This document shows positions 18,705 to 29,602 of a stretch of 32,000 nucleotides of DNA, piece after piece; position 1 is the first letter of the stretch, and each line of letters opens with the position of its first letter. Source of the stretch: Alkalilimnicola ehrlichii MLHE-1. Lineage in GTDB: Bacteria > Pseudomonadota > Gammaproteobacteria > Nitrococcales > Halorhodospiraceae. Both the position numbers and the translations under genes were made by a program. The notes under the pieces were generated by a model that was not told the DNA's origin, made no database searches, and saw nothing but the letters and a program-made list of their open reading frames with translations. The stretch spans positions 330,001 to 362,000 of the forward strand of contig NC_008340.1 in assembly GCF_000014785.1 (NCBI RefSeq). The letters are read 5' to 3'.

Positions 18705-20138
18705 TCACAGATAAGGGCTCAGCAGCCAGAACAGGGCATCCCGGGCCTTCACCGGCAGAGTGCGCTCATGTAGTTGCGCGGCGTCGGCGGGCTCGCTCCT
18801 GTGCTGGGTCTCCCGGCAGTGTGCCACCATCTGCCCGGCAAAGCTGCGATCGTGCGTCTCCAGGGTGAGCTCAAAGTTCAGCCGCAGGCTGCGCGGGTCC
18901 AGATTGGCGGAGCCGATGTGGGTGTAATGCTCATCGATGATTAACAGTTTGGTATGGTTAAACGGTGCCGGCTGATACCAGACCTTCACCCCCCAGTGAA
19001 GCAGCTCCCAGAGCATGTGGCGACTGGCCCAGTCCACGTAAGGCAGGTTGCTGCGCCGGGGGAGCAGGATATTCACCTCTACGCCCCGAAGCGCCGCCGC
19101 CTGCAGGGCGGTGGTGAGGGGGCGGGGGGGCAGGAAATAGGGGGTCATGATCCATACGGACTCCCGCGCGGCGCTGATGGCCGCCACCATAATCATCAAC
19201 AGCCGGTCCAGATCTTCATTGGGGCCGTCGACAATGGCGCGGCAGGCCGCCTGGCCCTGGGGCTGAAGCGGGACGGGGGGCACGCTCTGTTCACTGCCGG
19301 TGGCGAAGGCCCAGTCCTCCAGAAAGACCTGCTCCAGGTTGGCCACCACCGGGCCGGTGACCCGGAAATGCAGATCCTGCACCGGGCGGCGGCCGGCCCC
19401 AACGCCGGTGAGGTGGTGCTCGCTGATGTTCATGCCGCCGGTGAAGGCCGTCTCGCCGTCGGCCACCAGCAGTTTGCGGTGGTTGCGCAGATTGACGTAG
19501 ATCTCCGGGGGCAGGAGTCGGGGCGCGAGGAAGCGGGCGTGGGGAATACCCTGACGGTAGAGCAGGCGGCTGATCCGGGGGAGGTGGGGGAAGGTGTACC
19601 ACTCGCCGAAGCCGTCCACCAGCACCCGCACATCGACCCCGCGCCGGTGGGCGTGGGCCAGGGCCCGGACGAAGCGCCGGCCGGTGGGGCTGTTGTTAAA
19701 GATGTAGGTGCTGAGATAGAGCCGGTGGCGGGCCTGGTCAATGGCCTGCAGCATGCGCGGATAGGCCTGCTCGCCGTTCTGCAGGGCTTCCAGGTGGTTG
19801 CCCTGGTAGAGCATCCGTCCGGTGATGGCATCGGCGCTGCGGACCAGTTCGGAACAACTGGCCGCACCGCCGGCCGGGCAGGGGGAGGCGTGTGCCGCCG
19901 GAACGTCCGGCACCTCGGCGCCCGGCGAGAGCAGCTTGCGGGCACGGGTGCGTACCCGGTTGATGCCGAAGAAAAAGTAGATCAGCGGGCCGGCTACCGG
20001 GAAGGCCAGGCAGACGGCGATCCACGCCATGGCCACGGAGGGCTCGCGTTTGTTGAGCAGGGCGTGGCCGGCGGCGATCGGACCGACCACGGCCTGGGCG
20101 ATACTCAGCAGAGCCAGCAGTAGGGTAAGCGGTTCCAT
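18705..20138 (-). CDS. cls: cardiolipin synthase
   Basis: There are two N-terminal TM helices and two HKD motifs (NHRKLLVADG... and NHTKLLIIDEHYTHIGSANLD). Confidence 0.9.
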   Translation of the reverse strand: MEPLTLLLALLSIAQAVVGPIAAGHALLNKREPSVAMAWIAVCLAFPVAGPLIYFFFGINRVRTRARKLLSPGAEVPDVPAAHASPCPAGGAASCSELVRSADAITGRMLYQGNHLEALQNGEQAYPRMLQAIDQARHRLYLSTYIFNNSPTGRRFVRALAHAHRRGVDVRVLVDGFGEWYTFPHLPRISRLLYRQGIPHARFLAPRLLPPEIYVNLRNHRKLLVADGETAFTGGMNISEHHLTGVGAGRRPVQDLHFRVTGPVVANLEQVFLEDWAFATGSEQSVPPVPLQPQGQAACRAIVDGPNEDLDRLLMIMVAAISAARESVWIMTPYFLPPRPLTTALQAAALRGVEVNILLPRRSNLPYVDWASRHMLWELLHWGVKVWYQPAPFNHTKLLIIDEHYTHIGSANLDPRSLRLNFELTLETHDRSFAGQMVAHCRETQHRSEPADAAQLHERTLPVKARDALFWLLSPYL

Positions 20139-20246
20139 GGCCTCCCGGTGTCCGGTTTGTGGTGGCCAGCCTCATTGACCGGTTACCCTACCACGCGCGG
20201 GGCTTGCGCGCCCCCTGACACAGCCAACCCGAAGGATAAAGCGACC

Positions 20247-21905
20247 ATGGCAGTACAGGCGAAATCCGGATTGCTCAAGGGGATGAACCCAACGGTCACC
20301 GTGGTGACGGTGGTGGTCATGCTGGTCTCGGTCATCCTCGGCGCCGGCTGGACGGAGCAATCCGCCGCTGCCATCAGCACGGCGCGTGAGACCCTGAACC
20401 CCTTCCTGGAATGGTACTACGTGGTGCTGGTGGCGGTGTTCTTCGTCTTTTGCCTGTGGCTGGGCGTGGGCCGGTACAAGAATGTGCGCCTGGGTGGCGA
20501 TACCGAGCGGCCGGAGTTCACCACCTTCTCCTGGGTGGCCATGCTGTTTGCGGCCGGAACGGGGGTGGGGATCATCTTCTGGAGCATCGCCGAGCCCATC
20601 ATGCACTTCGACTCCAACCCCTTCGCTGCCGACGGCAGCCCCGAGTCGGCGGCAGTGGCTATGCGCCTGACCTTCTTTCACTGGGGGCTCCCGGGGTGGG
20701 CGATCTTCGGGCTGGTGGGGCTGGTGCTGGCCTATTTCAGTTTCCGTCACAGCCTGCCGTTGACCGTCCGCTCGGCCCTCTACCCCTTCCTGGGGCACCG
20801 TATCCACGGCCCGATCGGTGATCTGGTGGACAGCCTGGCGGTGTTCGGCACGGTCTTCGGCATCGCGACGACCCTGGGGTTGGGGGTGCAGCAGATGAAC
20901 ACCGGACTGGGCCAGCTCTTCGGACTGGACACCACGCTCACCCTGCAACTGGGGGTCACCGCGGTGATCATGTTCATCGCCACGGCGTCGGTGGTCTCCG
21001 GGGTGAAGCGCGGGGTTCGGCTGCTCTCCGAGGCCAACTTCTGGCTGAGTGTGGTCATTGTGCTCTTTTTCCTGATCTTCGGCCCCACCCACTACCTGTT
21101 TGCGCTGACCATCGAGTCCACCGGCGAGTACCTGCAGAACCTGCTGGCCATGACCTTCTACACCCACGCCAACAAGGACACCGGCTGGCAGGCGGAGTGG
21201 ACAGTCTTCTTCTGGGGCTGGTGGATTGCCTGGTCGCCCTTCGTGGGCATGTTCATCGCCCGCATCTCCCGCGGGCGCACGGTGCGCGAGTTCATGCTCG
21301 GGGTGCTGCTGATGCCCACGGTGATCACCTTCGTCTGGATCGGGCTGTTCGGCGGCACCGCCCTGCACCAGGAGCTGTTCGGCGACGGTGGCGTGGTTGC
21401 GGCGGTGAGTCAGGATGTCTCGGTGGCCATCTTCCACACCATCGAGGGGATGCAATTGGGCCTTCTGGGGCAGGCGGCGGGGGTGCTGGTCACGGTCCTG
21501 ATCGCCACCTATCTGATCACCTCCGCCAATGCCGGCACCCTGGTCATCAACACGCTCCTGGCCAATGGGGACACCGATCCGCCCACCGGGCACCGGATCC
21601 TCTGGGGCGTGGTGCTGGCCCTGCTGACGGCGGTGCTCCTGGTGGCCGGTGGGCTGGAGACGCTGCAGGCGGCGGTCATTCTGGCGGGGCTGCCCTTTTC
21701 GTTAGTGATGGTGGCGATGCTGCTCGGTTTGGTGAAGGCCCTGGAGCAGGAGCGCTACGCACCGCGTCCCGGTGCCCGTACGCTGGCGCCGACCGAACCC
21801 TGGGTGGGCATGGACCAGGCCGGCGATACCCTGCACGAGCCCCGCGGCACGGCCGGGGCGGCCGGGGAGTACCAGCCCAGTGCCCGGACCGGCGCCGAGG
21901 GCTAG
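20247..21905 (+). CDS. BCCT-family (betaine/carnitine/choline) transporter
   Basis: The ATG at 20247 has AAGGA 10 nt upstream. The BCCT signature is WTVFFWGWWIAWSPFVGMFIARISRGRTVREF. The product is polytopic. Confidence 0.9.
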   Translation: MAVQAKSGLLKGMNPTVTVVTVVVMLVSVILGAGWTEQSAAAISTARETLNPFLEWYYVVLVAVFFVFCLWLGVGRYKNVRLGGDTERPEFTTFSWVAMLFAAGTGVGIIFWSIAEPIMHFDSNPFAADGSPESAAVAMRLTFFHWGLPGWAIFGLVGLVLAYFSFRHSLPLTVRSALYPFLGHRIHGPIGDLVDSLAVFGTVFGIATTLGLGVQQMNTGLGQLFGLDTTLTLQLGVTAVIMFIATASVVSGVKRGVRLLSEANFWLSVVIVLFFLIFGPTHYLFALTIESTGEYLQNLLAMTFYTHANKDTGWQAEWTVFFWGWWIAWSPFVGMFIARISRGRTVREFMLGVLLMPTVITFVWIGLFGGTALHQELFGDGGVVAAVSQDVSVAIFHTIEGMQLGLLGQAAGVLVTVLIATYLITSANAGTLVINTLLANGDTDPPTGHRILWGVVLALLTAVLLVAGGLETLQAAVILAGLPFSLVMVAMLLGLVKALEQERYAPRPGARTLAPTEPWVGMDQAGDTLHEPRGTAGAAGEYQPSARTGAEG

Positions 21906-22036
21906 CGCCGGTCCGGCCCCGGCGGGCCCGTGCGGCTCGGGCGGGTGTGGGGCCAAGAGGCTTGCTGCTGCAGGCGCTTAGCTTTAGACTTCAATAAAGT
22001 CAAGAACCCGCGGCATTCCGCTGCACGAGGTTGCCC

Positions 22037-22468
22037 ATGAACGATATGCACGAACACGAGCACGACGACATCGTCTCGCGCCTGCGGGACGCGGGCCTGA
22101 GACCCACGCGGCAGCGCCTGGCCCTGGCCGATCTGCTGTTCTCCCACGGCGATCGCCACGTGACGGCGGAATCGCTCTACGACGAAGCCCTCGGCCAGGG
22201 GGTGCGGGTGTCGCTGGCCACCATCTACAACACCCTGAACCAGTTCACCTCCTCGGGGTTGCTCCGTGAGGTGGTGGTGGACTCCGGCAAGTCCTATTTC
22301 GACACCAACACCGAGGCCCACCAGCACGTGTTCAACGAGGACACCGGGGCTATCGACGATGTCCAGCTGAGCCTGGATGCGGAGGAACTCGCCAGCCGCA
22401 TCGCTGTGCCCGAGGGGCATGAGATCACCGGCGTCGATGTCGTGGTGAGGCTGCGCCGCAGCCAGTGA
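22037..22468 (+). CDS. Fur-family transcriptional regulator (Cys-less, Irr/Mur-like)
   Basis: The winged-helix region is RPTRQRLALADLL...SLATIYNTLNQF. The metal-site region is SYFDTNTEAHQHVF. There are no CxxC pairs. The N-terminus contains HEHEH. Confidence 0.85.
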   Translation: MNDMHEHEHDDIVSRLRDAGLRPTRQRLALADLLFSHGDRHVTAESLYDEALGQGVRVSLATIYNTLNQFTSSGLLREVVVDSGKSYFDTNTEAHQHVFNEDTGAIDDVQLSLDAEELASRIAVPEGHEITGVDVVVRLRRSQ

Positions 22469-22567: not shown

Positions 22568-23398
22568 ATGGCCATGGCCGGTAGCCAGGGCGGCGTCGGT
22601 ATCTATGTGGATGCCGCCAACATCCAGATGAACGGCGGCTTCGGCATGCAGTACGACGTGCTGCGGGAGTTTGCCTGTCGGACCGGGGCCGAGCCCATCC
22701 GCCTCAATGCCTATGTGACCTACGATGAGCAGCGGGCCGAGCGCGACCGCGGCTACCACCAGCGGGTGAACAACTTCTTTCAGTCCATCCGCGAGTTCGG
22801 CTACAAGGTCATCATCAAGAAGTACCGCTGGTACCGGGACGAGGAGGGCAATGCCTACGCCAAGGCCAACGCCGACCTGGATATGGCGGTGGATGCCCTG
22901 CTGCAGTCGCAGAGCCTGACCCGGGTAATGATGGTCACCGGCGACGGGGACTTCGTTCAGGTGGTAAGGGCGCTGCAGAACCAGGGCTGCCGGGTGGAGC
23001 TGCTGGCCTTCGACAATATCTCCTCGGAGCTTCGCCGCGAGGCCGATGTGTTCGTCTCCGGCTATCTGGTGCCCGGCCTGCTGCCACCGCGTGAGCAGCA
23101 GGGGCGCCCGGTCTGGGGGGAGATGGGCTCACGGGTGCGGGGCATCTGCTATTACCACAGCCCGGACGGGTATGGGTTTCTGCGTTTCATGCGGCGGATC
23201 GCCGACCACCTCTGGGTGACCGACACCCGCCATCCCCACTCGCCTTACGCCTCGGCCTATTTCCGTGACAGTGACCTGCCCGCCAATCTCAAGCCCGGCG
23301 ATCTCCCAAGCCACGGCATCATCCTTGAGTTCGACATCCACCCCTCGTCGGTGAAGGAGGGGGCGCTGGAGGCCAGCGACATCCAGCGCGTGCGCTGA
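22568..23398 (+). CDS. NYN (LabA-like) nuclease domain protein with a C-terminal cold-shock-like OB domain
   Basis: NYN motifs are GIYVDAANI and MVTGDGDF. The C-terminal 90 aa contain SPDGYGFLRF...AYFRDSDL...GIILEFDI, which resembles a CSD/S1 fold. An ATG at 22574 is an alternative start. Confidence 0.75.
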   Translation: MAMAGSQGGVGIYVDAANIQMNGGFGMQYDVLREFACRTGAEPIRLNAYVTYDEQRAERDRGYHQRVNNFFQSIREFGYKVIIKKYRWYRDEEGNAYAKANADLDMAVDALLQSQSLTRVMMVTGDGDFVQVVRALQNQGCRVELLAFDNISSELRREADVFVSGYLVPGLLPPREQQGRPVWGEMGSRVRGICYYHSPDGYGFLRFMRRIADHLWVTDTRHPHSPYASAYFRDSDLPANLKPGDLPSHGIILEFDIHPSSVKEGALEASDIQRVR

Positions 23399-23408
23399 GC
23401 CCGGCCGG

Positions 23409-24365
23409 TCAGCGCCCCGGGTCCAGGGCCCGGGCCATCTCCCGCGCCACCTGGTCGAGCGCTTCGCGGCTGTCCACGTCGCCTGGCAACAGCGGCAGGC
23501 GCAACGGGTGCAGATCCGGGAAGTACTCATCGATACGTGCCAGCCAGCGGTGCTCCCGGGCCAGCCGCTCTCGGAAGAAGGGATCGGTGACGCCTTCAGG
23601 CAGGAGCTTGTTCACCACCAGGTGGCGCACGTGGATGTTCCAGTCGGCCAGCTCCCGGATGGCGTTGCGGGTCTCGGTGATGGGCAGGTATTCCGGGACG
23701 AGGACAAAGACAAAGGCGGTGGTCTGGTCATCCAACAGGATGTCACGCATGGCCGCGGCCCGCTGGCGGCGTCGGCTGAGCACGTCGTAGAGCGGGTCGT
23801 CCGGGACCTCGCCGTCGCCCAGCCAGTGGGAGTAGTCCCTGTTGCGTTTGTGGCGCCGCTTGAGCAGCCCGTCCACCCAGGTGCCCATGAGTTCGGGCAG
23901 GGTGAGCAGCCGTACCGTATGCCCGGTGGGGGCGGTGTCGAACACCAGCAGGTCATAGGCCTGGGACTCCTCCAGAATCAGGCTGACCATACGGTCGAAC
24001 AGGGCGGCCTCGGCGGCTCCGGGGGAGTGCGCGGCCAGGTCGATCTGGCGCAGGGCCTCGTCCAGCATGGTGGAGCGCACCGTGCGCCGGATATTCTCCT
24101 TGACCCCGTCCAGGTAGCGATGGGTCTCCCGATGGACGTCCACCTCGACGGCGTCCAGGTTGGGGGCGACGCGGGTGATGCCCTCGCCGCCGATGGGGGT
24201 GTGAAACAAGTCCGCCAGGTTGTGTGCCGGGTCGGTGGAGACCAGCAGCACCCGCCGGTCCTGGTCCGCCGCATAGAGGGCGAAGGCCGCAGCGGAGGTG
24301 GACTTGCCGACCCCGCCCTTGCCGGCGAAGAACACCACCTGCCGGTTCAGCAGTGCGTTATCCAT
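23409..24365 (-). CDS. ArsA/Get3-family P-loop ATPase (single-domain, no cysteines)
   Basis: The deviant Walker A is GKGGVGKST. STDPAHNL and the family signature DTAPTGHTVRLL are present. The 318-aa product contains no Cys residue. Confidence 0.88.
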   Translation of the reverse strand: MDNALLNRQVVFFAGKGGVGKSTSAAAFALYAADQDRRVLLVSTDPAHNLADLFHTPIGGEGITRVAPNLDAVEVDVHRETHRYLDGVKENIRRTVRSTMLDEALRQIDLAAHSPGAAEAALFDRMVSLILEESQAYDLLVFDTAPTGHTVRLLTLPELMGTWVDGLLKRRHKRNRDYSHWLGDGEVPDDPLYDVLSRRRQRAAAMRDILLDDQTTAFVFVLVPEYLPITETRNAIRELADWNIHVRHLVVNKLLPEGVTDPFFRERLAREHRWLARIDEYFPDLHPLRLPLLPGDVDSREALDQVAREMARALDPGR

Positions 24366-24374
24366 GGGCCCCCC

Positions 24375-24650
24375 TCAGCAGCAGCGGATGTGGTCCAGTG
24401 GGGAATGCTCCATACCCATGCGCCGGTGCCACTCGTGGAACTCCTCAATGATCAGCGGGTAGAGCTCCAGGGTGTGGTAGGAGACGGGGTTGGGCACCCC
24501 GAGCATCTCTGAAAAGCACATGAACAGGAACAGGTCGTCCTCATCCCGCAGCTCGCGGATGACCTCGGCCTCATGGCCGAGCCGCAGCATCCGGTCGTAG
24601 CGATAAAGCCAGCGGGCGATGGGGTTACGGGGTTCATTCGGGTCGCTCAT
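24375..24650 (-). CDS. small conserved-looking protein ending in Arg-Cys-Cys-stop
   Basis: The 91-aa ORF has GGGAGG 5 nt upstream of its ATG. It starts 51 nt after the cstA stop and ends 9 nt before the ArsA-like start. The C-terminus is ...LDHIRCC followed by TGA. Confidence 0.6.
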   Translation of the reverse strand: MSDPNEPRNPIARWLYRYDRMLRLGHEAEVIRELRDEDDLFLFMCFSEMLGVPNPVSYHTLELYPLIIEEFHEWHRRMGMEHSPLDHIRCC

Positions 24651-24671
24651 GGCGGCCTCCCAAATGGGCAG

Positions 24672-24694
24672 GGCGGGGGCCTGAGGCCCCCGCC
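24672..24694 (-). promoter_or_regulatory. Perfect 10-bp GC-rich hairpin between cstA and the CC-tail gene
   Basis: GGCGGGGGCC-TGA-GGCCCCCGCC on the plus strand, which is the same stem on the minus-strand RNA. It is not followed by a U-tract, so it is more likely an intercistronic stabiliser or attenuator than a full terminator. Confidence 0.5.
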
Positions 24695-24701
24695 GTGACG
24701 G

Positions 24702-26462
24702 TCACTCGGCTTCACGCGCCTCGCGCTCGGCGAGGCGCTTGAGTTCCTCCGGGTTGCGGAATAGGCGCACCGCCTCCAGCAGGATCCAGATGGCAAAGCC
24801 CAGGATGATGGCGCCGAGGATGAAGAGCAGCCACTGGGCATCGGCCTCACCGAGACCGGACCAAGTGAAGACCACCTGCTGGATCATGGCCCAGACGGTC
24901 ATGGTCAGCAGGAAGACCATGGGTACCAGGGTCGGCAGCGGGCTACGGCCCTGGCGGTAGAGCCAGAGCGAGATCAGCATCAGGGTGATGCCGGCCAGCA
25001 GCTGGTTGGAGGTGCCGAACAGCGGCCAGAGCAGGAAGCCGCCGGAGCCGAGGCCGCGGCCCCCGTCCGGCAGCAGGACCAGCAGGGCGGTCAGGAACAC
25101 GGCGATGAAGGTGGCCACGTAGCGCTGGGAGAGCTTAGGCGCGCCGTACTCCACCCCCAGCTCGCCGATGATGTAGCGCAGGAGGCGCACCGCGGAGTCG
25201 AGGGTGGTGGCGGCGAAGCTGACGATAATAATGGCCACGATGGTCTGGCCCACGGCCGCCGGGATGCCCAGCCCGGAGATCAGCTCTCCGGCGCCGCCGA
25301 CGAAGTTGCCCACCCCACCGGCGCCGGCGGCGGCGAAGCTGGAGTAGGCCTCGTGGAAGTCCGTGGTGCTGGCGAAGAAGGTGGCCACCGCCAGAATGGT
25401 GATCAACGCCAGTGTGCCCTCGCCCACGGCGCCCAGATAGCCAATGGTACGGGCATCGGTCTCCTTATTGAGCTGCTTGGACGAGGTCCCCGAGGCCACC
25501 AGCCCGTGGAAGCCGGAGATGGCGCCGCAGGCGATGGTGATGAACAGCAGCGGGAACCAGGACGTGGTGGCCTCGCTGTTGAAGGCGGGGGCGGTGACGG
25601 TGGGCGCGGCGACCAGCAGACCGCCGTAGAGCAGCAGCAGACCCACCACCAGCTGTTGGGCGTTGATGTAGTCGCGCGGCTGCAGCAGCTTCCAGACTGG
25701 CAGCGTGCTGGCGACGAAGACGTAGGCCAGCAGGATCAGGATCCAGATCAGGAACGATGCCCCCACGGCGTCCAGACCGAACATGACGTTGGTGGCCTGT
25801 TCGCCCCCCATCCAGCCCACCAGGTCGATCTGCAGCGCCGGCACGTAGGTCGCGACCACTGCCGCGCCGTACATTACCGCCAGCGCGACCAGTGAGGGGA
25901 TAAGCATGTTGCCCTTACGGCGCAGCACCGCGTACCCGATCCAGATGGCCAGCGGGATCTGAATGAAGACCGAGAGCACGGCTGCCGGGTTGCTGATGAA
26001 CAGGTTGGCGATGACCCAGGCGAAGACCGCGTTCACCATCAGCACGAGGATCAGGATGATAAACAGGAACAACAGCTTGGCCCGCCGCCCCACCAGCCGA
26101 TTGGCCAGGGTGCCGATGGACTGCCCCTTATGCCGCGCCGACAGCACCAGGGCACCGAAATCGTGTACCCCGGCGGCGAACACCGTGCCCAGCACCACCC
26201 AGAGCATGGCCGGCAGCCAGCCCCAGTACATGGCGATGGCCGGCCCTACGATGGGAGCGGCGCCGGCCACGGAGGTGAAGTGGTGGCCCCAGAGCACCCA
26301 TTTATTGGTGGGGACGAAGTCCACCCCGTCGTTGTAGCGGTTGGCCGGCGTGATGAAATTGGGATCGAGCCGGTAGATGCGCTCGGCCAGGAACTTGGAG
26401 TAGTAACGCCAGCCAAGGATGTAGATCAGGCCGGCAATAAAGGCAAGCCAAACTGCGTTCAT
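24702..26462 (-). CDS. cstA: carbon starvation protein A family transporter
   Basis: The 586-aa polytopic product has CstA N-terminal motifs: WGHHFTSVAGAAPIVGPAIA and GAVHDF-like (GVHDFGALV). Confidence 0.93.
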   Translation of the reverse strand: MNAVWLAFIAGLIYILGWRYYSKFLAERIYRLDPNFITPANRYNDGVDFVPTNKWVLWGHHFTSVAGAAPIVGPAIAMYWGWLPAMLWVVLGTVFAAGVHDFGALVLSARHKGQSIGTLANRLVGRRAKLLFLFIILILVLMVNAVFAWVIANLFISNPAAVLSVFIQIPLAIWIGYAVLRRKGNMLIPSLVALAVMYGAAVVATYVPALQIDLVGWMGGEQATNVMFGLDAVGASFLIWILILLAYVFVASTLPVWKLLQPRDYINAQQLVVGLLLLYGGLLVAAPTVTAPAFNSEATTSWFPLLFITIACGAISGFHGLVASGTSSKQLNKETDARTIGYLGAVGEGTLALITILAVATFFASTTDFHEAYSSFAAAGAGGVGNFVGGAGELISGLGIPAAVGQTIVAIIIVSFAATTLDSAVRLLRYIIGELGVEYGAPKLSQRYVATFIAVFLTALLVLLPDGGRGLGSGGFLLWPLFGTSNQLLAGITLMLISLWLYRQGRSPLPTLVPMVFLLTMTVWAMIQQVVFTWSGLGEADAQWLLFILGAIILGFAIWILLEAVRLFRNPEELKRLAEREAREAE

Positions 26463-26619: not shown

Positions 26620-26711
26620 TTGTAGGTGCGTCGCCCGGGTGATTGTAGAATCATGCTGCAGCTCGGAAGCGGCCTTCGCATTATTCAATGACTGACGAGG
26701 AGGGTGTAACT

Positions 26712-27152
26712 ATGGGCTCGATTGTCGTGGGGGTGGACGGCTCTGAAGGGTCCCGCCGTGCCCTGCTGGCTGCCCTGGAGGAGGCGCGGTTGCGTAAGTT
26801 GCCGCTGCGGACCGTCTACGTGCTGGATCGCCGGTACCTGGATCCGGAGTGGGGTGTGTTGGTGGCGCCGCCCATCAAAGAGCTGGAGAAAGAGGCCCGG
26901 GGTATTCTGGAGAAGCTCGTGGCCTCGGTGGCCGATCAGGCCAAGGGCGTGGACGTGCAACAGGAGGTGGTGTTGGCCGAGAAGCACGGTACCGCGCGCA
27001 CCCTCTTGGACCACGCCTCGGACGCCGAACTGTTGGTGGTGGGGAGCCGCGGCCACGGTGGCTTCGCCGGCCTGTTGTTGGGCTCGGTGAGCCATCAGGT
27101 CCTGCAGTTTGCCGACTGTCCAGTGCTGGTGGTGCCGCGCGGCGCACATTGA
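26712..27152 (+). CDS. universal stress protein (UspA family)
   Basis: The ATG at 26712 has GAGGAGGG 9-10 nt upstream. IVVGVDGS and VVGSRGHGGFAGLLLGSVS (ATP-binding type) are present. Confidence 0.85.
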   Translation: MGSIVVGVDGSEGSRRALLAALEEARLRKLPLRTVYVLDRRYLDPEWGVLVAPPIKELEKEARGILEKLVASVADQAKGVDVQQEVVLAEKHGTARTLLDHASDAELLVVGSRGHGGFAGLLLGSVSHQVLQFADCPVLVVPRGAH

Positions 27153-27163
27153 TGCCCAGCCCG

Positions 27164-27202
27164 CCCTCGCCCCGGCCTGCTCGGGGTGGGGGGCTTTGGG
27201 TT
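27164..27202 (+). terminator. possible intrinsic terminator after usp
   Basis: An imperfect 11-bp stem pairs 27164-27174 with 27182-27192 and includes two G-U pairs. The loop is 7 nt. The stem is followed by CTTTGGGTT, a weak U-tract. Confidence 0.3.
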
Positions 27203-28139
27203 AGTACTGCAGTTGTTTGCTGATCTGGATGGCCGTGGCCAGTGCCCGGCGACCGGCGTGGCCGTCCACCAGCGGCGTTCGCCCCTCCCGGATACATGCC
27301 GTGAAGTCGCGGATCTCCGCCATCAGGGCGTCGCCATCCTCGAACACCGACTCCTCGCTGATGATCTCCGGTATGCCCGGGAACATCTCCCGGTCACCGG
27401 GCCGGTGGTGGGTCAACACCCGGTTCTGGAAGTCCACGGAGACATAGCCGTGGGGCAGGAAGAGCCGCACCTTGCGCTCCACCTTCATGCTGACCCGGCT
27501 GGCGGTGACGTTGGCCACGCAGCCCCCGGGGAACTGCAGCCGGGCATTGGCGATGTCGGTGTCCTGGGTGAGCACCGGCACGCCCTTGGCATCGATCCGC
27601 TCCGGCGTCTCGTTGACCAGCGAGAGAATGATGTCGATGTCGTGGATCATCAGATCGAGGACCACGCTGACATCCGTGGCCCGCGGCTTGAACGGTGCCA
27701 GTCGGTGGCATTCGATGAACCGGGGCGGCTTGTTCTTCATGTCCAGGTCCATCAGCGCCGCATTGAACCGCTCCAGGTGCCCCACCTGGAGCAGGGCACC
27801 GTGCCGGTGGGCCAGTTCAATCAACTCGTCGGCCTCATCCAGGGTGGTGGTGATGGGCTTTTCCACCAGCACGTGGACCCCGGCGGAGAGCAGGTCCCGG
27901 GTGATCCGGTAGTGCAGCGACGTGGGTGCCGCCACGCTGACGGCGTCGACCTGGCCCAGCAGCGCCCGATGGTCGTCCAGCAGCGGTACGCCATGCTTGT
28001 CGGCCACCGCCCGGCCGGCGGCCTCGTCCACGTCCACCACGGCCACCAACTCACAGTCCGGCAGAGCGGCGTATTTGTCGGCGTGAAACCGCCCCAAGTG
28101 CCCGGTTCCGACCACGGCACAGCGCAGCTTGCCCGTCAT
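27201..28139 (-). CDS. Gfo/Idh/MocA-family NAD(P)-dependent oxidoreductase
   Basis: The N-terminal Rossmann motif is VVGTGHLGRFHA, and the EKP motif (VLVEKPI) is present. The substrate cannot be assigned from sequence alone. Confidence 0.85.
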   Translation of the reverse strand: MTGKLRCAVVGTGHLGRFHADKYAALPDCELVAVVDVDEAAGRAVADKHGVPLLDDHRALLGQVDAVSVAAPTSLHYRITRDLLSAGVHVLVEKPITTTLDEADELIELAHRHGALLQVGHLERFNAALMDLDMKNKPPRFIECHRLAPFKPRATDVSVVLDLMIHDIDIILSLVNETPERIDAKGVPVLTQDTDIANARLQFPGGCVANVTASRVSMKVERKVRLFLPHGYVSVDFQNRVLTHHRPGDREMFPGIPEIISEESVFEDGDALMAEIRDFTACIREGRTPLVDGHAGRRALATAIQISKQLQY

Positions 28140-28216: not shown

Positions 28217-29473
28217 CTAGCCTGTGCGCTTGACCGCCTTTAACCCCTGGCGGTCCTCACCATCCAGAGCGGCCAGGCGGTCCTCCGCCTCGCTGATGTA
28301 ATCGCGGGTCAGGGGCACGGCCCGGCGGTCGCGGCTGAGCTGGATCTGGAAGACCATATGATCGAGGTGGCGGAAGGCCGCCTCGCTGGCCAGCAGGTAA
28401 TACTCCCACATGCGGCAGAAGCGCTCGTCATAGAGCGCTTTGATGCGCTCGCGGTTGGCGACGAAGCGGTCGTGCCAGGCGCGAAGGGTTTCAGCGTAGT
28501 GCAGGCGGAGGATCTCCACATCGGTGACCCAAAGGCGGGACTTCTCCACGGCCCGTAGCACCTCCGAGAGTGCCGGGCAGTAGCCGCCCGGAAAGATGTA
28601 CTTGGCGATCCAGGGGTTGGTGCGCGCCGGCGGGCTTATGCGGCCGATGGCGTGGATCAGGGCGATGCCGTCCGGTTTCAGCAGCCGGCGCAGATGGCCG
28701 AAGAACTCGCGGTAGTGGGTGACGCCGACATGCTCGAACATGCCCACCGAGACAATCCGGTCGTAGGGACCCTGGCGTTCGCGGTAATCCTGAAGCTCGA
28801 AGGCGACGCGATCATCCAGTCCGGCCTCCTGCGCCCGCGCCCGGGCGACCCGCAGTTGCTCGGTGGAGAGTGTGACCCCGGTGACGTTGACCGGGGCATA
28901 GCGGGCTAGCGACAGTCCCATGCCGCCCCAGCCGCTGCCGATATCCAGCACCTCTTGGCCCGGTTCCAGGCAAAGCTTGGCGGCGATGTGCCGCTTCTTC
29001 TTCTGCTGCGCGGTTTCCAGGCTTTCGTCGCCATTCTGGAAGTAGGCGCAGGAGTACTGCCGGTCCTCGTCCAGAAAGAGGTCGAACAGCTCGTCCGAGA
29101 GGTCGTAATGGTGGGCGACATTTCGCCGCGCCCGCCCCAGCGGGTTAAACTGGGCCAGATAGCGCAGTGGGCGTAACAACCGGCGTTGCACTTGGTGCCA
29201 GCGGGTTTGCTCCAGCTCCCGCAGGGCCCGGCAGGCGATGGCCAGGAGGTCGCGCAGGGTGCCCTCCTCGAGCTGGATGCGTTGGTCCATCCAGGCCTCA
29301 CCCAGTTCCAGGTCCGGTCGCACGCCGAGCCGGCGGACGGTCCGCCAGTCGTTGATGCGCAGGGTGACCTTCGGGGGGGCTCCGGGGCCGAATGTACGTT
29401 GCCGGCCATCCGGGAGGATGACCTTGAGCCGTCCCTCGGTCACAATGCGGTTCAACAGGTGTGCCAAAAGCAT
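28217..29473 (-). CDS. cfa: cyclopropane-fatty-acyl-phospholipid synthase family SAM-dependent methyltransferase
   Basis: The SAM motif is VLDIGSGWGG. HYDLSDELFDLFLD and IFPGGYCP are typical of CFA/mycolic-acid cyclopropane synthases. I prefer the ATG at 29473 (AAGGAG 6 nt upstream) over the GTG at 29479. Confidence 0.85.
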   Translation of the reverse strand: MLLAHLLNRIVTEGRLKVILPDGRQRTFGPGAPPKVTLRINDWRTVRRLGVRPDLELGEAWMDQRIQLEEGTLRDLLAIACRALRELEQTRWHQVQRRLLRPLRYLAQFNPLGRARRNVAHHYDLSDELFDLFLDEDRQYSCAYFQNGDESLETAQQKKKRHIAAKLCLEPGQEVLDIGSGWGGMGLSLARYAPVNVTGVTLSTEQLRVARARAQEAGLDDRVAFELQDYRERQGPYDRIVSVGMFEHVGVTHYREFFGHLRRLLKPDGIALIHAIGRISPPARTNPWIAKYIFPGGYCPALSEVLRAVEKSRLWVTDVEILRLHYAETLRAWHDRFVANRERIKALYDERFCRMWEYYLLASEAAFRHLDHMVFQIQLSRDRRAVPLTRDYISEAEDRLAALDGEDRQGLKAVKRTG

Positions 29474-29602
29474 CGCCACCTCCTTCGGCGGCCGGAGGCC
29501 TCCGGCCTGGTACCGCCGGCCGGCTGTCGGTTGTCAACTCAATCTGTTATTCAGGATAGATTCATTTCGTCGGTAATGCCGATACACAATCCGGGAGTGC
29601 CT

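Follow-up and report, generated by a model that had tools for sequence, protein, structure and literature searches.

A Cys-Cys-terminated small protein and a Get3/ArsA-type ATPase form a conserved pair, linked in one clade to a CstA-family transporter

What do small proteins with Cys-Cys or Cys-Sec tails (CC or CU tails) do at CstA-type pyruvate/peptide transporters, and what do Get3/ArsA-like ATPases do when neither arsenite nor a tail-anchored (TA) protein is their substrate? Both questions meet in a three-gene locus of Alkalilimnicola ehrlichii MLHE-1. In the window (the whole 32,000-nt stretch of DNA that we analyzed), the minus strand carries cstA (24702-26462; 586 aa, first gene of the operon; PF02554, 494 bits), cstX (24375-24650; 91 aa, a cory-CC-star or DUF7990 protein), and a gene for a single-domain, Cys-free P-loop ATPase of the Get3/ArsA fold, Aeh1 (23409-24365; 318 aa; PF02374, 250 bits). 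The three genes are co-directional with intergenic gaps of 51 nt (cstA/cstX) and 9 nt (cstX/ATPase), and the C-terminus of CstX reads ...DHIRCC and is followed by a TGA stop, as a preliminary description of this DNA had stated for the gaps and the IRCC ending.

The arrangement recurs far beyond this genome. We scanned one genome per species, obtained 431 genomes with a close CstX relative, and read gene neighborhoods from the best 80 of the 431. At least four phyla are represented among these 80 loci (Bacillales, Gamma- and Alphaproteobacteria, Gemmatimonadota, and Acidobacteriota). The gene immediately upstream and in the same orientation is cstA in 78/80 loci (one exception is a contig end), and the ATPase gene directly follows the CC-star gene in 80/80, co-directional in 79. 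The terminal Cys-Cys is kept in all 80 loci, in 120/120 of the closest homolog clusters, and in all 20 aligned members of a second main clade introduced below. A comparison of this kind had been proposed in the preliminary description as a check on the association, and the association holds up in it. The distances of the three proteins are correlated (r = 0.78-0.92), CstX being the slowest-evolving, and no additional gene is common across lineages, either in the best 80 CstA-linked loci or in the second clade. The adjacency of CstA, CC-star, and ATPase is far beyond chance, and we consider it very likely that the three genes are a genuine, conserved, and co-inherited functional module.

The triad, including the window ATPase, has been known from comparative genomics since 2010. 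Castillo and Saier (2010, Int J Microbiol, PMC2963123) described cstA-cstX-arsA-homolog operons in 26 bacteria and archaea, with a ~90-aa cstX product and a ~330-aa single-domain ArsA homolog (their Clusters 14-18). Cluster 17 of their Table 1 contains Aeh1 of Alkalilimnicola ehrlichei MLHE-1 (318 aa), which is the window ATPase, and also holds proteins of B. halodurans, Halorhodospira halophila, Chromohalobacter salexigens, and haloarchaea; its members present in SEED all cluster with CstA and the ~90-aa CstX. Their operons and the window triad are the same system; in the window, the 91-aa open reading frame is flanked by the genes for the 586-aa CstA and the 318-aa ATPase. In their proposal, CstA is energized by the ATPase and CstX is the coupler, so that a mechanism for the triad had in fact been put forward, contrary to the preliminary description. 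PMC2963123 does not note the terminal Cys-Cys of CstX, scores the protein as having a single transmembrane segment (TMS), states that CstX never occurs without cstA, and draws no link to YbdD, YjiX, or YjiA. What we add is the identity of CstX with DUF7990/cory-CC-star, a correction of its supposed transmembrane nature, a pair core that is independent of CstA, and a twin system in btsT-yjiX-yjiA of E. coli.

The CstA-independent core is visible in a large clade, mostly from soil and sediment metagenomes, whose CC-star proteins end in ...LPCC (the PCC clade, loci L083-L166). The ATPase gene abuts the CC-star gene in 76/76 of its loci with enough sequence, and CstA is upstream in 0/44, in contrast to the 2010 report, with no substitute third gene. 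The CC-star/ATPase pair is also found in a ...GVCC clade (L169), in a ...YCC clade (L170), and in divergent members without the Cys-Cys (L171, L172). The invariant core of the system is the CstX-ATPase pair, and CstA is a clade-specific partner. The earlier suggestion that the small protein serves as a CstA accessory thus stands as far as the conserved three-gene module goes, and is too narrow in that the pair persists without an adjacent CstA.

Several loci show local variants. Natronospirillum and a Vicinamibacteraceae metagenome-assembled genome carry a second CstA directly downstream of the ATPase, in the order CstA-CstX-ATPase-CstA2 (paralogs at L028:7481-9097, L029:7439-9103, and L056:7249-8874). 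Halorhodospira abdelmalekii (L001:6264-7295) is the sole locus of the 80 with the ATPase gene on the opposite strand, convergent with the CC-star gene and overlapping its stop codon, which may reflect a local inversion or an artifact of the assembly. At the ...GVCC locus (L169:2-508), the CC-star start is overlapped by a gene whose unannotated product (at least 160 aa) contains an internal GSGCCG and has no Pfam or NCBIfam match. L171 has 69% GC, carries a DUF8107 gene, and may be haloarchaeal.

The window CstX scores 121.3 bits against NCBIfam NF041419, 'cory-CC-star protein' (cutoff 80), the name that NCBI uses for it as well, and the precomputed Pfam assignment of the 100% identical NCBI protein of this genome is PF25952 (DUF7990); small CC-terminal proteins beside ArsA-family ATPases do carry this name, as the preliminary description had suggested. 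The family is compact and strongly conserved: a profile search among 1.84 billion representatives returned 178 clusters of it at 50% identity. Invariant in both main clades are D39, P53-N54-P55, P65, H72, W74, H75, R77, G79, S83-P84, and C90-C91. Family-wide, 87/150 representatives have the terminal Cys-Cys and most others resemble fragments or frameshifts, and the residue preceding it differs (RCC, PCC, SCC, GCC, VCC, FCC). The AlphaFold2 (AF2) model of CstX (predicted local distance difference test score, pLDDT, 79.5) consists of a helix (10-50), the PNP turn, further helices (55-77), and a tail (78-91) that is disordered. The protein has an isoelectric point (pI) of 5.2, a grand average of hydropathy (GRAVY) of -0.52, and a maximum KD19 hydropathy of 1.1, without a hydrophobic segment of transmembrane length. 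By this model, CstX is predicted to be no membrane protein but a soluble, acidic hairpin of helices whose flexible arm of ~14 residues ends in Cys-Cys; this corrects the single-TMS score of PMC2963123 and does not exclude CstX from the family described there.

Neither fold (best E = 4.5) nor sequence gave a relative of CstX in the PDB, and no function, structure, or publication was found under the names DUF7990 or cory-CC-star in the literature searched. Many cory-CC-star proteins are named 'DNA helicase' in UniRef and some 'predicted Kef-type K+ transport protein' at JGI; both look like propagated misannotations. We also considered natural fusions of CstX as Rosetta-stone evidence and rejected them, the candidates (P0247, P0346, P0336, P0312, and P0360) being frameshift or assembly chimeras; such chimeric CstA/CC-star/ATPase entries confirm adjacency only.

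The ATPase belongs to the GET3/ArsA/TRC40 subfamily (TIGR00345: 257.3 bits, cutoff 135). Its deviant Walker A (GKGGVGKST, residue 15) and its switch II (DTAPTGHT, residue 143) are intact, and GKGGVGKxT, STDPAH, SPGxxEAAL, FDTAPTGHTxRLLxLPE, and PExLPIxET are conserved in 79 orthologs. It contains neither a Cys nor a CxxC, and the alignment of the 79 orthologs has no conserved Cys column, which bears out the earlier statement that the thiols of ArsA and Get3 are absent. The whole triad has four Cys, namely C312 of CstA and C45, C90, and C91 of CstX, and C90-C91 is, as had also been said, its sole vicinal pair. The triad resembles ArsA-ArsD-ArsB in the fold of the ATPase, in its GKGGVGK and DTAPTGHT motifs, and in the partnership of an ATPase with a secondary transporter, and ArsD, too, is a small partner that works through vicinal cysteines. 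It differs in that ArsA is a tandem-domain protein of ~580 aa and the window ATPase a single domain of 318 aa without C113, C172, and C422, in that CstA is an importer, and in that CstX is all-helical and unrelated to ArsD. The same three Cys are missing from the single-domain homologs of Castillo and Saier (PMC2963123). We rejected an identity as arsenical-pump ArsA on the single domain, the ArsA equivalog score (TIGR04291: 143.6 bits vs. a cutoff of 650), the lack of Cys, and the lack of ars context: no ars gene occurs in the window neighborhood (CstA, NYN, Usp, Fur-family) and none is conserved across loci. Also comparable are the uncharacterized bacterial Get3 homologs of 'Group 9' (Bodensohn et al. 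2019, PMC6593721) from Firmicutes, Proteobacteria, and Actinobacteria, which are also single-domain and have no CxxC and no alpha-crystallin domain.

The kinship with Get3 raises the alternative that the ATPase delivers CstX, as a membrane-embedded or tail-anchored client, and inserts it next to CstA. The solved structures nearest to the ATPase are those of bona fide TA-targeting proteins, Chlamydomonas ARSA1 (5zme) and archaeal Get3 (3zq6, 3ug6), followed by ArsA and eukaryotic Get3, and the segment between switch II and PExLPIxET is of Get3 length (65 aa in the window ATPase, 87 aa in the FRCC clade). The counterpart segment of ArsA is shorter, at about 49 aa. CstX moreover has a moderately hydrophobic stretch, LFLFMCFSEMLGV, and was scored single-TMS by Castillo and Saier. 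The ATPase insert is, however, highly charged (median 14 K/R and 12 D/E) and Met-poor, unlike the hydrophobic or Met-rich insert of Get3/TRC40, and no CxxC, evident TA client, or Get1/Get2-like gene nearby accompanies it; the ATPase is instead paired with one specific small protein that is predicted to be soluble. That protein has the low hydropathy and hairpin model given above, and a polar, flexible C-terminus such as it has is the reverse of a tail anchor. In view of its hydropathy and its predicted structure, we largely rejected CstX as a tail-anchor client, and targeting of the Get3 type is very improbable here.

A second, apparently parallel system exists in E. coli K-12, where btsT is followed after a 49-nt gap by yjiX (67 aa, ...MRCC) and after another 10 nt by yjiA, which encodes a 318-aa COG0523 P-loop GTPase; E. 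coli cstA-ybdD (...ARCC) has no NTPase gene. YbdD and YjiX, which belong to DUF466 (PF04328), are RCC-ending proteins encoded directly downstream of cstA and its paralog, as the preliminary description had it. Sodalis has the CstA-DUF466-CobW triad as well, and so, probably, does an Orbales-like genome, in which DUF466 and CobW genes are called and a 2.7-kb stretch at the expected position of CstA has no called gene. Both systems share one grammar: a CstA-family transporter, ~50 nt, a small protein ending in (R/K)-Cys-Cys, ~10 nt, and a 318-aa NTPase of the SIMIBI class. The AF2 model of YjiX (a helix, a G-x-P turn, helices, and a flexible RCC tail) follows the same plan as that of CstX, and YjiX too has two invariant His upstream of the tail in addition to the Cys-Cys. 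YbdD is needed together with CstA for constitutive pyruvate uptake in E. coli (PMC5847655), and DUF466 and cstA-like genes show cofitness on pyruvate (bioRxiv 10.1101/072470). Campylobacterales have DUF466 proteins that end in Cys-Sec (PMC4607533), the variant named 'KCU-star' in NCBIfam, which suggests redox chemistry at the tail.

The likeness between the two systems does not extend to the level of sequence, and the remark in the preliminary description that CstX shows no other resemblance to DUF466 is upheld. Homology of CstX and DUF466 could not be demonstrated (BLASTP E = 0.065; hhalign 9% probability over the last 8 tail columns only); 0/38 CC-star members match PF04328 at E <= 10, and the top 150 matches of an exhaustive CC-star profile search include no DUF466 protein. 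The window ATPase and YjiA share only a P-loop fragment by BLASTP (best E = 1.7), and the window ATPase has no cobW Pfam match. We read the CstX and the YbdD/YjiX systems, by analogy of layout and model, as probable functional analogs and not as one family.

The transporter of the window is a short-form member of TC family 2.A.114 (586 aa vs. 701-716 aa for E. coli CstA and BtsT). Identity to BtsT of E. coli is 35% across the N-terminal 376 aa, and the window protein lacks segments 1-27, 393-400, 424-441, and 610-640 of E. coli CstA. With 247.6 bits against the E. coli CstA equivalog NF011590 (cutoff 1188), it does not qualify as an ortholog of the pyruvate/H+ symporter CstA by that model. C312, the one Cys of this transporter, is part of the signature IACGAISGFH, and H60, H61, C312, and H319 are invariant in 63 linked CstA orthologs and in E. 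coli CstA and BtsT.

Whether this transporter is turned into a pump is the question raised by the proposal of Castillo and Saier, in which the ArsA homolog docks on CstA and makes or boosts an ATP-driven pump, as ArsA does for ArsB, and CstX is the physical coupler. The published proposal drew on the context of the operons and on congruent trees from 26 genomes, the window locus among them (PMC2963123), and of the three pairwise distance correlations in our data, that of ATPase and CstA is the highest (r = 0.92, partial 0.78). A real precedent exists in ArsA-ArsB (PMC12415280), and the hosts are largely haloalkaliphiles, in which a low proton-motive force would presumably favor ATP coupling. 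On the other hand, E. coli CstA and BtsT are secondary symporters driven by proton-motive force that need no ATPase (PMC7730263), the pair lacks an adjacent transporter throughout the PCC loci scored, the predicted soluble CstX does not suit the 'single TMS' linker that was assumed, and the NTPase of the E. coli twin triad is a COG0523 GTPase of metallochaperone type, not an energizer of transport. We regard such ATP coupling as rather unlikely.

The His and Cys residues of CstX raise a different alternative, in which two CstX tails (2 x Cys-Cys plus His72/His75) would give the ATPase dimer soft-metal or zinc ligands in trans, the pair would be a metallochaperone of SIMIBI type or a thiol redox sensor, and the linkage to CstA would be secondary (e.g., metal or redox control of the transporter). 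Metal handling at the dimer interface is known from many SIMIBI NTPases, among them ArsA, Get3 (zinc), COG0523 proteins (YjiA), UreG, and HypB. The invariant H72-x-W-H75 and C90-C91 lie beside and on the flexible arm, the E. coli twin combines a metal-binding COG0523 GTPase with a YjiX of two invariant His and Cys-Cys, the CC-star/ATPase pair persists without CstA, and the exchange of Sec for Cys in DUF466 points to redox chemistry (PMC4607533). HxxH and Cys-Cys are jointly present in 71 representatives and jointly absent in 34 (Fisher P = 1e-14); because these counts are phylogenetically non-independent, we rejected the co-occurrence as proof of a metal site, and 7 sequences keep the Cys-Cys without the full His pair. 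Neither main clade has a consistently linked metal-related gene, and the four-Cys clasp is purely conjectural. A metal or redox unit is, in our judgment, unlikely.

The reading that we prefer, tentatively and at somewhat less than even chances, is that the client of the ATPase is CstX and that the ATP cycle controls how the thiol arm of CstX engages CstA. The ATPase would act as an ATP-dependent dimerization switch, as Get3, ArsA, and MinD do, and CstX, not a metalloid or a tail-anchored protein, would be its dedicated client. Through the ATP cycle, CstX would be bound and released, which would determine when the arm (the invariant C90/C91, probably together with H72/H75) touches CstA on its cytoplasmic side. 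There, the single invariant Cys312, with H319, is a candidate contact, and engagement of the arm may activate or gate the uptake of pyruvate or peptides. CstX would then be the functional counterpart of YbdD/YjiX, the ATPase would take the role of the COG0523 GTPase YjiA, and where DUF7990 clades have no cstA next to the pair, we predict an unlinked target for it. We infer CstX to be the client because the operon is apparently co-translated and is co-inherited, the pairing with the ATPase is obligate, the Cys-Cys arm is flexible, the ATPase is intact and free of thiols, and the single Cys of CstA is invariant.

Several points weigh against control of CstA by an ATPase-driven CstX arm. The contact between CstX and the ATPase is a candidate interaction deduced from the features just listed, and C312 is a candidate contact whose placement in the membrane topology is hypothetical. 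The partial distance correlation of CstX is lower with the ATPase (0.16) than with CstA (0.38). The absence of Cys from the ATPase is a trait of the CstA-linked clade and not a general rule, because PCC-clade ATPases often have a Cys directly after the P-loop (S24-equivalent; 34/36 covering sequences). A divergent branch of DUF7990 (L171:3326-4245, L172:94-575, and P0319-P0390) has lost HxWH, keeping only W74, and mostly lacks the terminal Cys-Cys (tails such as ...QQYHF and ...DYDLDA), and an ArsA/Get3-type ATPase is still immediately downstream; the thiol arm is thus not essential in every pair. Function can be carried over from YbdD to CstX by analogy only, because homology is not demonstrable. 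We also tried the mirror-tree partial correlations as a means of choosing the closer partner of CstX and set them aside as not discriminating.

A wider version of arm control would have DUF7990 and DUF466 converge on a hairpin with a (R/K)-Cys-Cys or Cys-Sec arm, each working with a different SIMIBI NTPase, as a general swinging-arm device that controls or energizes CstA-family transporters. We think this generalization improbable as matters stand. If it were true, it would amount to a so far unrecognized mechanism, a thiol or selenol 'swinging arm' driven by a nucleotide switch, and the same device would act on other targets in the DUF7990 clades that lack CstA. A CstX client would also be the first specific client for a large group of uncharacterized bacterial Get3 homologs. 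Should the ATPase energize or gate a secondary transporter through a thiol arm, this would be a new mode of transporter control, of potential importance above all in haloalkaliphiles, whose proton-motive force is limiting.

The hosts of the CstA-linked clade are indeed largely haloalkaliphiles, including Halalkalibacterium, Alkalibacillus, Halorhodospira, Natronospirillum, Halomonas, Idiomarina, and haloarchaea. In a comparison with loci L001, L004, L010, and L057, the window triad is much closer to that of Halorhodospira and alkaliphilic Bacillales than to that of other Gammaproteobacteria: CstA is 74-76% identical to Halorhodospira and 64-71% to alkaliphilic Bacillales (CC-star 60-77% to the latter), and a genome labeled A. 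ehrlichii AK92 shows 51% (CstA), 54% (CC-star), and 40% (ATPase). These identities suggest that the whole triad may have been transferred horizontally across phyla among haloalkaliphiles.

Within the operon, a Shine-Dalgarno (SD) sequence, GGGAGG, can be read on the minus strand at 24656-24661, 5 nt before the ATG of the CC-star gene. The 9-nt spacer GGGGGGCCC (24366-24374, minus), from the TGA of the CC-star gene to the ATG of the ATPase gene, is itself SD-like, which implies coupled translation of the two. Spacing between them is short across clades, with medians of ~25 nt (CstA-linked) and ~1 nt (PCC clade) that rest on a heuristic choice of start codons. The cstA/CC-star spacer contains a perfect, GC-rich hairpin of 10 bp with a 3-nt loop (24672-24694, minus). 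It has no T-run and was not called by a terminator scan; a 54-nt spacer folds at -29.4 kcal/mol with a z-score of -1.6 against shuffles, which is not significant, and we rejected the hairpin as a regulatory signal. A scan upstream of cstA found no sigma-70-like promoter, and no Rfam family matched at the locus.

On the ATPase side, the operon is flanked by a convergent plus-strand gene for a 276-aa NYN-domain protein (22568-23398), which ends 10 nt from the ATPase stop and is not conserved at other loci. On the cstA side, a 225-nt spacer with a lower GC content separates cstA from a divergently transcribed universal stress protein (Usp) gene (26688-27152, plus), and a Usp gene also flanks cstA in the Halorhodospira locus L004. 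Farther out are genes for a PLD/cardiolipin-synthase-like protein (18705-20138, minus), a BCCT betaine/choline transporter (20148-21905, plus), and a Fur-family regulator (22031-22468, plus) on one side and for a GFO/IDH/MocA oxidoreductase (27201-28139, minus) and a cyclopropane-fatty-acid synthase (28217-29479, minus) on the other, which together look like an osmotic and membrane stress neighborhood.

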